From a virus (lineage: Duplodnaviria; Heunggongvirae; Uroviricota; Caudoviricetes), in IMG/VR virus record IMGVR_UViG_2563366964_000008, positions 1 through 32,667 of that record: a stretch of DNA of 32,667 bases. One strand, 5' to 3'. The translations under genes and the position numbers were made by a program. This document shows positions 2,675-6,372 of the stretch, piece by piece; the first letter of the stretch is position 1; every line of letters begins with the position of its first letter. A model generated the notes under the pieces. It was not told the DNA's origin. It did not search any database and worked only from the letters and a program-made list of their open reading frames with translations.

Positions 2675-3367
2675 TTAATTATGTCTCTTAAGGGTTTGCG
2701 ACTGACTGATTAAGACCTTTCCAAAGACCATGAATCGGTGTTCGTTTTCGCTAGTAATTCCCCATTCACGGTAAATCTGGTTATCAGAAATCACCAGCAG
2801 TTTGTCAGGAATCATTTGAAGTCTTTTAACGTATATTTTGTCATCAAAACCAAAGACATATATACCATCACCATCAAACTGATTGATGCTGACATCAACG
2901 AAGATGAGATCTCCTGGCTCAATGGTTGGACACATACTGTCCCCACGAACGTTGATAACTTTGATGTGATTGGCTGGTCGTCCGCCGAACATTGATACAG
3001 CATTATCAGTTCTGTATTCGATGGCATGAATCACATCAATGACATCACCGCCCTGGATAAGGCCATTTCCCGCACTGGCACTGATATCCAGCATTTCAAT
3101 ACGGAACACATCCTTCACCTGCGCAACATCCTCATTATTACTGTTTTTATATACAGTATTACTTTTGTGGGCAGAGGTAAAGAGATCAGCAATATCAACA
3201 CCTAAGCTCTTGGCAATATTACTCAGTGTTTGTTCGGTAAATTGTTTTTGCTTACCCGTTTCTAAGCGCGAGATGTTCGCCGCATCTACTCCTATCGCTT
3301 CAGCGAGATCGGCGATTTTCATGTTCTTCGCTTGGCGAAGTTGTCTGACTCGGTTTCCTATGTTCAT
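2675..3367 (-). CDS. cI: CI-type prophage repressor (N-terminal HTH, C-terminal LexA-like S24 autopeptidase domain)
   Basis: 230-aa ORF; N-terminal HTH pattern (QLRQAKNMKIADLAEAIGVDAANISRLE); C-terminal GDSM serine motif and downstream Lys (YVKRL); divergent from a Cro-like gene. Confidence 0.9.
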   Translation of the reverse strand: MNIGNRVRQLRQAKNMKIADLAEAIGVDAANISRLETGKQKQFTEQTLSNIAKSLGVDIADLFTSAHKSNTVYKNSNNEDVAQVKDVFRIEMLDISASAGNGLIQGGDVIDVIHAIEYRTDNAVSMFGGRPANHIKVINVRGDSMCPTIEPGDLIFVDVSINQFDGDGIYVFGFDDKIYVKRLQMIPDKLLVISDNQIYREWGITSENEHRFMVFGKVLISQSQTLKRHN

Positions 3368-3464
3368 GCGTTTATTACATTTCTTTATTGCGTGATAAGC
3401 AAATCAACTTGCGCAAAATAATTGCGTGAAATAACATGCATAACGCGCAATATTTGGAGGGCGT
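3368..3464. promoter_or_regulatory. Immunity-switch intergenic region (candidate OR with divergent promoters for cI and cro)
   Basis: 97-bp gap between divergent cI and cro; repeated TTGCG/CGCAA motifs including TTGCGTGATAAGCAA (3388..3402) and the palindrome TTGCGCAA (3409..3416); GGAGG Shine-Dalgarno before cro. Confidence 0.6.
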
Positions 3465-3725
3465 ATGCAATCACCATTACGAAATGTGCGTAAGGCGCAT
3501 GGTTTCACTTTGCAACATGTTGCTGCGGGTGTTCAAGTCAATCCAGCGACGTTGAGTCGTATTGAGAGGCTGGAGCAGATTCCATCTATCGAGCTTGCAG
3601 AACGTTTAGCCAATTTTTTTAAGGGTGAAGTCAGCGAAATGCAGATTCTTTATCCGGCACGTTTTCAATCTAGCCAAAACCAGAATGGGTTTAAACCACA
3701 GGAACAGGAGGTGAACCGTGGGTAA
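3465..3725 (+). CDS. cro: Cro-like HTH regulator
   Basis: 86-aa ORF divergent from cI; HTH pattern (FTLQHVAAGVQVNPATLSRIE). Confidence 0.75.
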   Translation: MQSPLRNVRKAHGFTLQHVAAGVQVNPATLSRIERLEQIPSIELAERLANFFKGEVSEMQILYPARFQSSQNQNGFKPQEQEVNRG

Positions 3726-4269
3726 GCATCACTGGAAAGTAGAAAAACAGCCTGAGTGGTACGTGAAAGCTGTCAGAAAAACTATCGCAGCGTTGCCGGG
3801 GGGGTACGCTGAAGCTGCTGACTGGCTGGATGTAACAGAGAACGCATTATTTAACCGCCTTCGTGCCGATGGCGATCAGATTTTCCCGCTGGGATGGGCA
3901 ATGATTTTGCAACGTGCTGGTGGAACTCACTTCATTGCTGACGCTGTGGCGCAGTCTGCAAATGGCGTCTTTGTGTCTCTTCCTGATGTCGAGGATGTGG
4001 ACAACGCCGATATCAACCAACGCCTGCTGGAGGTCATTGAACAGATCGGCAGTTATTCAAAACAGATTCGTTCAGCAATTGAAGACGGTGTAGTGGAACC
4101 GCATGAGAAGACAGCAATTAACGACGAGCTGTACCTCTCAATTTCGAAGCTGCAGGAGCATGCAGCACTGGTCTACAAAATTTTTTGCATTTCAGAAAGT
4201 AATGACGCCCGCGAGTGTGCAGCTCCGGGCGCCGTGGCGTGTCGTGACTGTGGAGAAACTAACGCATGA
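3718..4269 (+). CDS. CII-like early regulatory protein (recalled resemblance to the CP76/YdaT-type family); GTG start
   Basis: 183-aa ORF directly after cro; AGGAGG Shine-Dalgarno 6 nt before the GTG at 3718; position equivalent to cII. Confidence 0.5.
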
Positions 4270-4604
4270 ACAGTTTAACAACACACTACCGTCGCTCGCA
4301 ACTGATTGCGCTTCCTGTACCGGGTGGAAAAGCGAAGGTGGAGTATTGCTATGCAGTAAATGTACCAGGTGGCAGGGTAATTGTAACCCACAGCTTTGCA
4401 GAGTGGGCTGTGGGTGATTTTAACCGGCAAAAGGAGACAGTCCTTTGCGACAAGTTAACCGCTGGTTCAAAGATCACTACGGAGTACCCGTCAGAGTCAT
4501 TCGTTGGGAGCCGGAAACACAACGGGTTATCTACCTCCGCGAAGGCTATGAGCATGAATGCTTCAGTCCGCTCGAACAGTTTCGTCGTAAATTCAGGGAA
4601 ATAG
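4266..4604 (+). CDS. Hypothetical protein; the 3' third is probably not coding in this frame (see the 4445..4624 ORF)
   Basis: Track ORF of 112 aa; the N-terminal about 58 aa look protein-like, the C-terminal part is Ser/Asn-rich and low-complexity. Confidence 0.35.
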
Positions 4605-4624
4605 AGGTCGGTCATGAGCACTAA
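4445..4624 (+). CDS. Hypothetical 59-aa protein with a TTG start, absent from the ORF track
   Basis: AAGGAG (4431..4436), 8-nt spacer, TTG (4445); translation [59 protein letters not shown] is strongly protein-like; stop at 4622..4624 overlaps the start of the next gene. Confidence 0.35.
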
Positions 4625-5555
4625 ATTAACCGGCTATGTATGGGATGGTTGCGCTGCGTCAGGCATGAAATTATCCAGCGTGGCAATTATGGCCCGCCTG
4701 GCTGATTTCAGTAATGACGAAGGTGTGTGCTGGCCATCAATTGAAACCATTGCCCGTCAGATTGGCGCGGGGATGAGTACCGTCAGAACGGCTATCGCAC
4801 GGCTGGAAGCAGAAGGCTGGTTAACGCGTAAGGCGCGTCGCCAGGGTAACCGCAATGCGTCGAATGTTTATCAGCTTAACGTTGCGAAGCTTCAGGCAGC
4901 GGCATTTTCTCAATTGTCAGATTCTGACCCGTCAAAATCTGACGCATCAAAATCTGACCCGTCAAAATTTGATGCGTCGAAATCTGGCAAAAAAGCGGGT
5001 TTTCACCCGTCAGAATCTGGCGGGGATCCGTCAGTAAAATCAAAACATGATCCGTCAGATAAAAAAACTTCTCGTCCGGACGCTTCGCAACCGGACACGC
5101 AGACGGCTGAACAGGAGTTTTTAACTCGCCATCCTGATGCGGTTGTATTCAGCCCTAAAAAGCGCCAGTGGGGAACGCAGGATGATTTGACCTGCGCACA
5201 GTGGCTCTGGAAAAAAATCATCGCCCTGTACGAGCAGGCCGCCGAATGTGACGGCGAGGTGGTTCGTCCCAAAGAACCGAACTGGACAGCCTGGGCAAAC
5301 GAAATTCGCCTGATGTGTGTGCAGGATGGTCGTACTCACAAACAAATCTGCGAGATGTACAGCCGCGTCAGCCGCGATCCGTTCTGGTGCCGTAACGTGC
5401 TCAGCCCGTCGAAGCTGCGGGAAAAATGGGATGAGCTTTCCCTGCGCTTATCGCCGTCCGTCAGCACGTACACCGAAAAACGCGAAGACCCGTACTTCAA
5501 AGCCAGTTACGACAACGTGGACTACAGCCAGATCCCGGCAGGATTCAGGGGGTGA
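4614..5555 (+). CDS. Replication initiator / replisome organiser (O-like; N-terminal HTH, internal iteron-encoded repeat linker)
   Basis: 313-aa ORF; N-terminal winged-HTH-like region; central low-complexity repeats (DPSKSDASKSDPSKFDASKS) encoded by tandem 15-bp DNA repeats; position after cII-like gene. Confidence 0.8.
   Translation: MSTKLTGYVWDGCAASGMKLSSVAIMARLADFSNDEGVCWPSIETIARQIGAGMSTVRTAIARLEAEGWLTRKARRQGNRNASNVYQLNVAKLQAAAFSQLSDSDPSKSDASKSDPSKFDASKSGKKAGFHPSESGGDPSVKSKHDPSDKKTSRPDASQPDTQTAEQEFLTRHPDAVVFSPKKRQWGTQDDLTCAQWLWKKIIALYEQAAECDGEVVRPKEPNWTAWANEIRLMCVQDGRTHKQICEMYSRVSRDPFWCRNVLSPSKLREKWDELSLRLSPSVSTYTEKREDPYFKASYDNVDYSQIPAGFRG
4914..5068. repeat. Candidate origin of replication: about 5 tandem 15-bp iterons (CCGTCAAAATCTGAC-like, 4914..4988) plus 3 degenerate copies (5006..5066) and an A-run
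   Basis: Direct tandem repeats read from the sequence, located inside the initiator gene as in lambda ori. Confidence 0.6.
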
Positions 5556-5557
5556 TC

Positions 5558-6046
5558 ATGAGTCTTTTGAATGAAGTTCAGAAATACATTGAAGCCCATC
5601 CGGGGTGTACTTCCGGAGACATTGCGGATGCTTTTGCAGGTTACTCACGGCAGCGCGTTCTGCAGTCAGCAAGCAAGTTACGTCAGAGTGGTCGTGTGGC
5701 TCACCGTTGTGAAGGGGATACACGCAGACATTTCCCGCGCCTGACTGAGAGAGCGCAGGAGGCGGAACCACAACCAGTTCGTGAAACCAGACCTGTGCGC
5801 AATTTCTATGTCGGCACTAACGACCCGCGGGAGATTTTGTGCCTGACCCGCCAGGCTGAAGAACTGGAGTCCAGGGGCTTATACCGTCGTGCTGCAACGG
5901 TGTGGATGGCGGCATTCCGTGAAAGCCACTCCCAGCCAGAACGAAACAATTTTCTGGCGCGTCGTGAGCGGTGCTTACGGAAAAGCAGCAAGCGCGCTGC
6001 ATCGGGTGAAGAGTGGTATCTGTCAGGGAATTACGTGGGGGCTTAA
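5558..6046 (+). CDS. PerC-family-like transcriptional regulator (C-terminal PerC-like motif)
   Basis: AGGGGG Shine-Dalgarno 6 nt before the ATG at 5558; C-terminal segment AEELESRGLYRRAATVWMAAF matches my recollection of the PerC/Pch signature. Confidence 0.55.
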   Translation: MSLLNEVQKYIEAHPGCTSGDIADAFAGYSRQRVLQSASKLRQSGRVAHRCEGDTRRHFPRLTERAQEAEPQPVRETRPVRNFYVGTNDPREILCLTRQAEELESRGLYRRAATVWMAAFRESHSQPERNNFLARRERCLRKSSKRAASGEEWYLSGNYVGA

Positions 6047-6372
6047 TGACGACGTTAACTCAATGCCAGCAGCAGGTGCTGGATATGCTGATTTCTTATC
6101 AGAAAGAACGTGGCTTCCCACCAACCAATCAGGAGGTGGCAACCATGCTGGGATACCGTTCGGTGAATGCAGCGGTGGAGCATCTTCGTGCGCTGGAGAA
6201 AAAAGGCGTCATCACGATAAAGCGTGGCGTGGCCCGGGGGATAACGCTTCATACCGCGGTGAAGGACGACGACAGCGAGGCGGTCGGGATTATCCGCTCA
6301 CTGCTTGCCGGTGAGGAAAACGCCAGGCTGCGTGCAGCCCACTGGTTACATGAGAGGGGCCTGAAAGTATGA
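6046..6372 (+). CDS. LexA-N-terminal-like winged-helix DNA-binding protein
   Basis: ATG at 6046 overlaps the upstream stop (TAATG); sequence QQQVLDMLISYQKERGFPPTNQEVATMLGYRSVNAAVEHLRALEKKGVI resembles the LexA DNA-binding domain. Confidence 0.55.
   Translation: MTTLTQCQQQVLDMLISYQKERGFPPTNQEVATMLGYRSVNAAVEHLRALEKKGVITIKRGVARGITLHTAVKDDDSEAVGIIRSLLAGEENARLRAAHWLHERGLKV

Follow-up and report, generated by a model that had tools for sequence, protein, structure and literature searches.

Genes nested out of frame within other genes are well known in phages, as in Rz/Rz1 of lambda, B within A and E within D of phiX174, and L of MS2. Phage and bacterial operons also couple the translation of neighboring genes through the proximity of stop and start codons, as in ATGA overlaps and in the termination-reinitiation of the trp operon. 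Two described prophage proteins are related to the locus considered here. For YmfM, or SfiC, of the K-12 cryptic prophage e14 (b1148), expression of the ORF leads to filamentation, and Z-ring inhibition has been reported for the whole 339-nt ORF (bioRxiv 10.1101/2020.11.19.390815). RgdR (ECs1581), from prophage CP-933C of EHEC O157:H7, is a pleiotropic regulator of LEE1 and motility that binds DNA non-specifically; it is 99 aa long, its RGD tripeptide matters for T3SS activation, and it is itself unannotated in EDL933 (PMC3378721).

The window (the whole stretch of 32,667 nt that was analysed) represents an e14/SfIV-type lambdoid early region, with the order ymfK (cI-like), ymfT (cro-like), ymfL (CII-like), ymfM and replication initiator (Table 1). 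The gene upstream of ymfM had been described as CII-like from its sequence, and the Pfam match of ymfL bears this out. The product of the replication initiator, which shares its reading frame with ymfM, is called 'primosomal protein' or 'O-like' in database records. Orthology with ymfM of e14 is indicated by 96.7% DNA identity to K-12 over 701 nt and by the same flanking genes, and the YmfM protein is 94-99% identical to YmfM in the databases. The sequence-only reading had pointed to a second ORF at the 3' end of ymfM, with a TTG start, a canonical ribosome-binding site and a stop overlapping the initiator start, and had offered two explanations: an independent small gene, or a single gene disrupted by a 1-nt indel. 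Both ORFs are present, in different frames, and the AAGGAG, spacer, TTG and overlapping stop are as described. The comparisons below point, with good confidence, to two independently initiated genes that share positions 4445-4604 in different frames, and not to a frameshifted pseudogene.

Table 1. Features of the ymfL-replication initiator interval, in window coordinates.
Feature	Position	Strand	Remarks
ymfL, CII-like (Phage_CP76 / YmfL family)	3718..4269	+	Pfam PF06892, E 1.5e-13; NCBIfam NF041471, E 9e-50
ymfM, whole ORF	4266-4604	+	112 aa, ATG start
ymfM N-terminal domain, codons 1 to ~60	4266..4445	+	stretch of the annotated YmfM (112 aa; SfiC, cell division inhibitor) that is conserved and folded
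ymfM tail, codons 61-112 plus TAG 4602-4604	4446..4604	+	+1 frame of the DUF4222 gene
Shine-Dalgarno AAGGAG of the DUF4222 gene	4431-4436	+	read from sequence; 8-nt spacer 4437-4444
DUF4222-family gene	4445-4624	+	59 aa; TTG 4445-4447, TAA 4622-4624; Pfam PF13973
Replication-initiator ribosome-binding region	4604..4616	+	GAGG 4604-4607, ATG 4614-4616 (read from sequence)
Replication initiator (HTH_36 / DnaD-N-like)	4614..5555	+	Pfam PF13730, E 4e-11; record annotations

The TGA stop of ymfL (4267-4269) and the ATG of ymfM form an ATGA overlap. The DUF4222 ORF lies in the -1 frame relative to ymfM, with 160 of its 180 nt inside ymfM, and extends 20 nt beyond the ymfM stop. Its TAA ends 8 nt after the initiator ATG, which gives an 11-nt overlap. 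The last base of the ymfM TAG (G4604) is also the first base of the initiator GAGG, with three in-frame codons ahead of the ATG. Upstream, the DUF4222 frame is closed by a TAA at 4421-4423, 21 nt before the TTG, and the TTG is thus the only start that preserves the conserved N-terminus. A promoter scan yielded no internal promoter for the TTG ORF.

The translation of the TTG frame had been judged a convincing protein, and it matches Pfam PF13973 (DUF4222) over residues 2-53 (model positions 3-52 of 53; E 8.6e-19), scoring 67.3 bits against a curated gathering threshold of 27 bits. The encoding DNA is 100% identical to that of E. coli XH990, in which the ORF is listed by PGAP as WP_001250269.1; PGAP uses this accession in a K-12 MG1655 assembly as well, and the K-12 protein is identical. 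Among the best 120 of 139 database homologues, nearly all carry PF13973 and most are stand-alone proteins of 59-70 aa, named DUF4222 by NCBI. The gene is located directly upstream of the replication gene or of an ash/rha gene in lambdoid phages, and is also found in phages without the ymfM N-terminal domain. Synonymous sites of the DUF4222 frame are saturated among relatives (pS 0.66-0.86), with a dN of 0.04-0.2, and identity among clusters is 0.63-0.96, 0.71-0.98 and 0.37-0.76 at codon positions 1, 2 and 3, respectively. The start codon occupies one aligned position in 181 unique relatives (ATG 115, TTG 48 and GTG 20 among 183 unique sequences) and is preceded by GGAG/GAGG-like purine-rich motifs. 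Judged by these comparisons, the TTG ORF is a genuine, conserved phage gene under strong purifying selection. Its product is predicted to form an SH3-like small beta-barrel (AF2 pLDDT 84). Foldseek searches with this model returned generic SH3/KOW/Tudor barrels and no significant PDB match (best E 0.04), PDB sequence searches with the DUF4222 and YmfM profiles gave no match, and NCBIfam holds no model for either protein.

The 112-aa ymfM ORF has no match in Pfam or NCBIfam, and only its N-terminal ~60 residues are conserved. This domain is coding, as a dN of 0.30 and a dS of 1.13 relative to Klebsiella phage L171 correspond to an omega of ~0.27. It occurs as a stand-alone ORF of 59-78 aa in five lineages (Hafnia yong2, Providencia PSTRCR_117lys, Citrobacter phiNP, Atlantibacter and Entomohabitans). 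In the AlphaFold model of YmfM, with which Foldseek found only noise, residues 1-66 have a pLDDT of 58-77 and residues 68-112 one below 40. This agrees with the observation that frame 0 becomes low in complexity after about residue 58, as does the drop in conservation among relatives after about residue 61. The tail frame shows an inverted pattern (pN 0.25 vs pS 0.04), and its residues vary column by column. On this evidence the amino acid sequence of the tail is unconstrained and predicted to be disordered. Compared with stop-free synonymous randomisations, tails of the e14/Klebsiella type show lower hydrophobicity (z of about -1.5 to -3.6), which is not so in the SfV type; this is suggestive, and could reflect either protein-level selection or a preference for C-ending codons in DUF4222.

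A scan of genome contigs with an alignment of the N-terminal domain yielded only 7 loci, and a metagenome scan and a first viral scan retrieved almost exclusively sequences at least 97% identical; the diverse relatives were supplied by later scans that started from DUF4222 variants and by phage records, of which 111 contain DUF4222 and 42 the ymfM N-terminal domain. The two-frame layout and the ATGA junction of ymfL and ymfM are each kept in 175 of 178 unique relatives, and the -1 offset is identical in phages of E. coli, Shigella, Klebsiella, Enterobacter, Phytobacter and Pantoea. The two modules stand apart in Citrobacter phage phiNP and Hafnia phage yong2, as genes separated by ~850 nt. PHROG 20047 (63 aa) was considered as a natural short YmfM and rejected, as the 63-aa proteins examined (P0064, P0067 and P0078) are indel variants that enter the third frame. 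The comparison with related phages thus shows that the TTG frame is conserved and a continuous single ORF is rare, and the fixed start, the separable modules and the PGAP annotation favor the first of the two original explanations, an independent nested gene.

The function of a frame that is open but not conserved is less obvious. One explanation is that only DUF4222 and a short YmfM are meaningful, with the open ymfM frame an inherited accident, which is in effect the view taken by PGAP. The lack of both sequence conservation and predicted structure in the tail fits such an accident, as do the stand-alone N-terminal domains that function without a tail in other phages. However, the ymfM frame is stop-free for at least 52 codons in all but one of 180 unique close relatives (44 codons in the exception), which were retrieved via DUF4222 similarity and not ORF length. 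The probability of an open frame by chance is 0.03-0.15 per sequence, although the sequences are related, so that inheritance inflates the counts and a product of per-lineage probabilities overstates independence; for comparison, among 52-codon segments in the other genes of the window only 7.6% lack a stop in the +1 frame. Between clusters, DUF4222 is close to saturation at third positions (0.37-0.57 identity for most), yet stop-creating synonyms are absent from at-risk codons: none of 614 at-risk Val/Leu codons (next base A) has a purine ending, against 160 of 449 in safe contexts, where the same codon types take such endings freely, and 214 of 353 such codons in the other genes of the window. 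Inferred third-position changes to purine number 0 of 19 at at-risk sites (all T<->C) and 16 of 37 at safe sites (Fisher p 4e-4), counted by parsimony on a poorly resolved neighbor-joining tree built from ~180 nt; stop avoidance within the e14/Klebsiella type alone gives a p of 0.0014. At-risk sites do turn over (CTC/CTT/GTT/ATC; GTC/GTT), within the limits of safe codons, and one Val codon is GTG or GTA only where the following Arg codon begins with C. Among distant DUF4222 genes, five of six have 2-7 stops in the +1 frame. Permutation of synonymous codons within single genes gave no significant result (0.07-0.69), because the codon pool of each gene is already poor in dangerous codons.

These patterns render the inherited accident improbable and suggest that the ymfM frame is held open by selection across DUF4222. 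Given the absence of stop-creating synonyms, both frames are probably translated. Selection thus appears to differ by frame, with strong purifying selection on the inner one, and stop avoidance with no amino acid constraint on the outer. The implication of the sequence-only reading that the frame-0 tail is meaningless holds for its amino acid sequence, but not for the frame, which is apparently kept stop-free and probably read. Similarly, of the pattern that would favor frame 0 over the TTG frame, namely conservation of the former and not of the latter, only the openness of frame 0 was seen, and purifying selection sits on the TTG frame.

In the preferred arrangement of two independently initiated genes, the 59-aa DUF4222 protein would be made from its own ribosome-binding site and would represent the conserved and older member of the pair. 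Translation of ymfM would start at its own ATG, coupled to ymfL through the ATGA overlap, and the functional part of YmfM would be the N-terminal domain of ~60 residues. Ribosomes on ymfM would then continue across DUF4222 in its +1 frame, adding an unconserved, disordered tail of ~50 residues, and would halt at the TAG, adjoining the Shine-Dalgarno sequence of the replication gene and 9 nt ahead of its ATG. We infer that the tail matters by virtue of being translated, either through ribosome delivery or as a harmless disordered appendage. Of 13 e14/Klebsiella-type clusters scored, 12 have the frame-0 stop 9 nt ahead of the next ATG, and in Pantoea AH07 the gap is 3 nt, independent of the length of the DUF4222 C-terminus. 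Going by this geometry, the tail might, as a tentative suggestion, bring ribosomes from upstream to where the replication gene starts or, in SfV-type phages, into the ash/rha gene. As the DUF4222 stop overlaps the replication-gene start too, a second route for coupling looks redundant. A stronger version, that the ymfM frame over the nested DUF4222 gene is selected only for the act of translation, as a sequence-independent 'conveyor' of ribosomes from ymfL/ymfM to the replication-gene start or into ash/rha, is rather doubtful; as a corollary, the SfiC phenotype may be due wholly or partly to DUF4222.

The position of the DUF4222 frame at -1 relative to ymfM would also be compatible with a programmed -1 ribosomal frameshift near 4424-4445, fusing the YmfM N-terminal domain to DUF4222 and leaving the 59-aa ORF mainly as the C-terminus of the fusion. 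An A-AAG site (4430-4433) is present in a 21-nt stretch open in both frames, beside the SD-like AAGGAG. However, the ymfM frame of the window and of most cluster representatives contains no X XXY YYZ heptamer, no heptamer is conserved in position, and the junction sequence varies among clusters. A local 6-bp hairpin in which the TTG pairs with the SD is weak and not significant (z -1.5), and relatives lack it. In addition, ST64B-type and Stx-type phages have a stop in the DUF4222 frame just 3 nt upstream of the start, and the alternation of ATG, GTG and TTG at the exact aligned first codon is a signature of initiation. Such a frameshift is therefore very unlikely.

Even less probable is the second of the original explanations, in which a single ancestral gene comprising the N-terminal domain and DUF4222 has been broken here by a 1-nt indel or sequencing error, leaving a pseudogene. 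One-frame fusions of 102-119 aa do occur in read-derived assemblies (P0032, P0051, P0060 and P0063), but they number 1-14 member sequences, against over 1,500 in the standard forms, and each arose from a different indel. The two-frame layout of nearly all relatives, the identical offset across phages of different genera, the fixed position of the DUF4222 start with an in-frame stop 3-72 nt upstream, and the existence of the modules as separate genes elsewhere all oppose it. Finally, it is hardly conceivable that the 112-aa YmfM is the only real product and the TTG frame a chance ORF, as annotation of the long ORF alone in NC_000913.3 and most phage GenBank records and the filamentation upon its expression might suggest. 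The family match in Pfam, the dN/dS pattern, a start codon that is conserved and the occurrence of DUF4222 genes in phages without the ymfM N-terminal domain are all opposed to it, and the expression construct, which carries the DUF4222 signals as well, does not discriminate.

The two genes have been annotated in a complementary manner. NC_000913.3 and the records of SfIV, SfII, mEp390, LLS and Eeyore annotate only the long ORF, while PGAP calls the DUF4222 gene and not ymfM; the K-12 reference therefore displays ymfM alone and PGAP genomes DUF4222 alone, and the overlap is visible in neither. What is new is that ymfM of K-12 also holds a DUF4222 gene. The published filamentation construct includes the SD and TTG start of DUF4222 together with 53 of its 59 codons, and ymfM was identified as SfiC with the complete ORF and a deletion of the complete gene, which likewise add or remove the DUF4222 gene. 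As the construct contains nearly all of this gene, the phenotype does not discriminate between the products, and the division phenotype published for ymfM could belong to either. Among the papers searched, none mentions ymfM together with ribosome profiling.

The locus corresponds to that of ymfM/SfiC in e14, an orthologue placed equally between ymfL and the replication gene, with no difference at the level of the locus. RgdR, a small prophage regulator, is the only studied relative of the 59-aa protein; the two belong to the same Pfam family (PF13973) and are small, prophage-encoded and often missed by annotators. However, RgdR has 99 aa and is encoded in a P4-like element, whereas the protein described here has 59 aa, is encoded between the CII-like and replication genes of a lambdoid phage, and lacks the RGD tripeptide, and so departs from the RgdR subfamily in both length and tripeptide. 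By analogy, the regulation exerted by RgdR may give a lead to the role of the 59-aa protein, and the family resemblance means that many enterobacterial prophages carry a relative of a virulence regulator in their early operon. Stop/start-proximity coupling of the kind known from other operons is resembled by the ATGA at ymfL/ymfM, by the ymfM stop 9 nt ahead of the replication-gene ATG and by the DUF4222 stop 8 nt after it; the difference is that here ~160 nt of another gene would be read purely as a spacer. We know of no functional partnership between the YmfM and DUF4222 products. As in Rz/Rz1-type nesting, nearly all of one gene, which has a ribosome-binding site and start of its own, lies inside another ORF, in a different frame of the same strand. 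In contrast to that type, the inner gene is here the conserved one and runs 20 nt past the outer stop, and the outer frame shows stop avoidance only. The locus thereby offers a well-sampled natural overlap, in which one frame is conserved as a protein and the other only as an uninterrupted frame, and bears both on the origin of overlapping genes and on how annotation misses or mis-merges small phage genes.

The stretch at 2675-5555 is the immunity and early-right region of a lambdoid prophage of the e14/SfIV type. Over a 701-nt query covering the overlap region, identity is 100% to E. coli XH990, ~98% to the Shigella phages SfIV and SfII, and 96.7% to the K-12 e14 element. Within it, the 59-aa TTG ORF lies in the -1 frame relative to the 112-aa ORF, ymfM, and TTG is its sole usable start because an upstream TAA closes the frame. 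The replication initiator shares the reading frame of ymfM, from which only the TAG and three codons separate it, and the last base of this TAG belongs also to the initiator's GAGG Shine-Dalgarno sequence. Every detail described in the sequence-only reading (AAGGAG, 8-nt spacer, TTG start, and a stop overlapping the initiator start) is present. A 6-bp hairpin (AAAGGA with UCCUUU) would mask the DUF4222 Shine-Dalgarno sequence together with the leading two bases of the TTG codon; it folds with a z-score of just -1.5, and the same pairing is impossible in the Klebsiella-type junction sequence.

Positions of the features discussed (window coordinates, except for collected relative loci marked L, which have their own)
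Feature	Coordinates	Remarks
LexA/cI-like repressor	2675-3367	minus strand
cro-like HTH gene	3465-3725	
CII/YmfL-family gene (ymfL)	3718-4269	
112-aa ORF (ymfM)	4266-4604	ATG 4266, overlaps ymfL stop as ATGA
TAA closing the TTG ORF frame	4421-4423	just upstream of the TTG
Hairpin	4430-4447	6 bp
DUF4222 Shine-Dalgarno AAGGAG	4431-4436	then 8-nt spacer, TTG 4445
DUF4222 gene (TTG ORF)	4445-4624	59 aa
ymfM stop TAG	4602-4604	
HTH replication initiator	4614-5555	ATG at 4614
DUF4222 gene stop TAA	4622-4624	
Six direct repeats	4902-5024	within initiator ORF
PerC-like ORF	5552-6046	
119-aa LexA-domain ORF	6013-6372	overlaps 3' end of PerC-like ORF
SfV orf37	L183 1052-1888	MNSL... ORF through DUF4222 into Phage_ASH
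ST64B sb41	L182 1058-2215	MNSL... ORF through DUF4222 into Phage_ASH
L426	802-1489	MNSL... ORF through DUF4222 into Phage_ASH
Atlantibacter MAG deletion variant	L008 1501-1741	YmfM N-terminal domain, 75-aa ORF

Sequence comparison identifies the TTG ORF as a genuine gene, as the sequence-only reading had proposed in one of its two versions, an independent small nested gene. Its product matches Pfam DUF4222 (E 8.6e-19), while the 112-aa ORF has no match in Pfam or NCBIfam. A database search returns 139 homologues, and among the 120 listed nearly all carry PF13973 and most are stand-alone proteins of 59-70 aa. Approximately 420 loci that resemble either the DUF4222 protein or the YmfM N-terminal domain were gathered; they yield 183 unique coding sequences, whose first codon is, at the same aligned position, ATG (115), TTG (48) or GTG (20). 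Such interchange of start codons at a constant position is the mark of genuine initiation. Purifying selection on this frame is evident in 19 clusters (90% nucleotide identity) compared with the e14 type, where first codon positions are 0.63-0.96 identical, second positions 0.71-0.98 and third positions 0.37-0.76 (≤0.57 in most clusters), and against Klebsiella phage 1 LV-2017 dN is 0.04 with saturated synonymous sites (pS 0.80). The AlphaFold model of the protein is an SH3-like barrel of five strands and one helix (pLDDT 84); the nearest folds in the PDB are KOW, Tudor, SH3, KorB-C and DUF1653 barrels, none of them significant.

Codon comparison also demonstrates purifying selection on the N-terminal domain of ymfM, whose first ~55 codons evolve in a protein-like manner (dN 0.30, dS 1.13 against Klebsiella); its model is a small alpha/beta unit (pLDDT 58-77). 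Read in the ymfM frame, the overlap gives an inverted pattern (pN 0.25, pS 0.04), because the second codon position of ymfM is the free third position of DUF4222. Together with residues that vary almost column by column among relatives and with predicted disorder (pLDDT below 40), this pattern argues that the tail holds no conserved amino-acid information. Compared with synonymous randomisations kept free of stops, tails of the e14/Klebsiella type have lower hydrophobicity (z -1.5 to -3.6), a difference confounded by codon preference and absent from the same comparison in the SfV type. In a natural deletion variant from the Atlantibacter MAG, the N-terminal domain is followed only by similarity to the last ~13 codons of DUF4222, just before the replication-gene start.

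What is conserved in the tail is its openness. The ymfM frame runs stop-free for at least 52 codons over the DUF4222 gene in all but one of 180 unique close relatives (44 codons in the exception), and the ATGA junction with an MNS(L/V) start occurs at 175 of 178 loci. The open frame is found in e14-type and Klebsiella/Enterobacter-type phages, in Hafnia yong2, in phages whose N-terminal module has diverged (Eeyore, LLS, mEp390), and in SfV, ST64B and Stx-type phages, where it extends into an antirepressor ORF (Ash or Ash-Rha, 277-387 aa). With the DUF4222 amino acids and the local codon usage taken as given, each sequence would have an open +1 frame with a probability of 0.03-0.15; among 52-codon windows from the window's other long ORFs, only 7.6% lack stops in +1. 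The codons at risk are Val and CTN-Leu before a codon starting with A, where a purine ending would create TAA or TGA. Such an ending occurs in 0 of 614 at-risk codons, against 160/449 for the same codon types before C or T and 214/353 before A in other genes of the window. On a neighbour-joining tree all 19 third-position changes at at-risk sites are T<->C, whereas 16 of 37 in safe contexts are to a purine (Fisher p 4e-4; p 0.0014 in the e14/Klebsiella type alone), p-values that are approximate, as the sequences are related and the tree weak. The direction is consistent at every at-risk site, and one Val codon is GTG or GTA only in lineages whose next Arg codon begins with C rather than A. These statistics show that stops are excluded from the tail beyond chance; since five of six distant DUF4222 genes carry 2-7 stops in +1, an open frame there is not a general trait of DUF4222 genes.

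Ribosomes loaded on ymfM through coupling to ymfL would have to translate across the DUF4222 gene, terminating, in the e14/Klebsiella type, at a TAA or TAG abutting the Shine-Dalgarno sequence of the replication gene; in the SfV type the frame would pass directly into ash. The distance from the ymfM-frame stop to the replication-gene ATG is exactly 9 nt (three in-frame codons) in 12 of 13 e14/Klebsiella-type clusters scored, and 3 nt (one codon) in Pantoea AH07, and does not depend on how long the DUF4222 C-terminus is. This geometry suggests, tentatively, that the tail is a translated spacer through which translation of the genes before it is coupled to the essential early gene that follows. 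Alternatively, it may be a disordered C-terminal appendage selected only for harmlessness or flexibility.

A single gene broken by a 1-nt indel was the other version offered by the sequence-only reading, and on the distribution of the two modules it is wrong. The DUF4222 module is present in 111 phage records, against just 42 for the N-terminal module. Citrobacter phage phiNP and Hafnia phage yong2 encode them as separate genes, ~850 nt apart and with a further gene in the interval; DUF4222 stands alone directly upstream of the replication gene in Yersinia YeP2, Elizabethkingia EKP1 and Providencia PSTCR8lys, and the N-terminal module alone (ORFs of 59-78 aa) in yong2, Providencia PSTRCR_117lys, phiNP, an Atlantibacter MAG and Entomohabitans. 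One-frame fusions (database proteins P0032, P0051, P0060 and P0063) are rare, come from read-derived assemblies and carry a different indel in each; proteins of the P0060 and P0063 type (118-119 aa), mostly from such assemblies, join the N-terminal domain to DUF4222. A search for slippery heptamers at the locus and in relatives found none conserved. The 63-aa proteins P0064, P0067 and P0078, which match the N-terminus of YmfM, are likewise rare indel variants, mostly from read-derived assemblies, and enter the third frame; the match of PHROG 20047 (63 aa) is to this N-terminal stretch too.

Annotations divide the pair. PGAP calls only the 59-aa ORF ('DUF4222 domain-containing protein', WP_001250269.1) in XH990 and in a K-12 MG1655 assembly, leaving 4270-4444 blank in both; the K-12 reference NC_000913.3 lists only ymfM (b1148, 'cell division inhibitor YmfM'), as do most phage GenBank records, and PHROGs keeps separate families for the 112-aa ORF, the 63-aa N-terminal form and the 59-aa protein. 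Of five papers mentioning DUF4222, none appears among the results of searches for ymfM. RefSeq and Pfam already include the 59-aa ORF; its overlap with the experimentally named ymfM, the display of just one gene of the pair by each of the two major annotation sources, and the conservation of the outer frame only as an open frame all appear undescribed. In SfV, ST64B and Stx-type phages the Ash domain starts right after the DUF4222 stop and PGAP starts ash at an internal GTG instead of the MNSL... start, leaving the true N-terminus of these antirepressor-like proteins uncertain.

The overlap bears on SfiC, the cell-division inhibition function of e14. Its filamentation phenotype was assigned to ymfM by expression of the ORF from pBAD24 and by ymfM deletion, with the overlap unmentioned (Ansari et al., bioRxiv 10.1101/2020.11.19.390815). 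The expressed ORF includes the DUF4222 Shine-Dalgarno sequence, the TTG and 53 of 59 codons, enough to cover the entire Pfam domain, and the deletion takes out both genes; the N-terminal domain of YmfM, full-length YmfM and the DUF4222 protein are therefore all candidates for SfiC.

Downstream, the 119-aa ORF holds only a LexA DNA-binding domain (PF01726, E 3.7e-19) without the S24 peptidase domain, and its product may be a non-cleavable LexA mimic. The six direct repeats within the initiator ORF, TCAAAATCTGAC(C/G)C(G/A), have a 15-nt spacing, the last of 33 nt, and translate as the repetitive peptide SDPSKSDASKSDPSKFDASKS. They resemble iterons of an origin located inside the initiator gene, as in lambda O. 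Among DUF4222 proteins only RgdR has been studied, a prophage regulator with pleiotropic effects that binds DNA non-specifically (PMC3378721, PMC10877973); as the 59-aa protein lacks its RGD motif and is 40 residues shorter, it is not filed as an RgdR orthologue. The ymfM/DUF4222 locus is, with good support, a new member of a class already known, that of phage genes nested out of frame.
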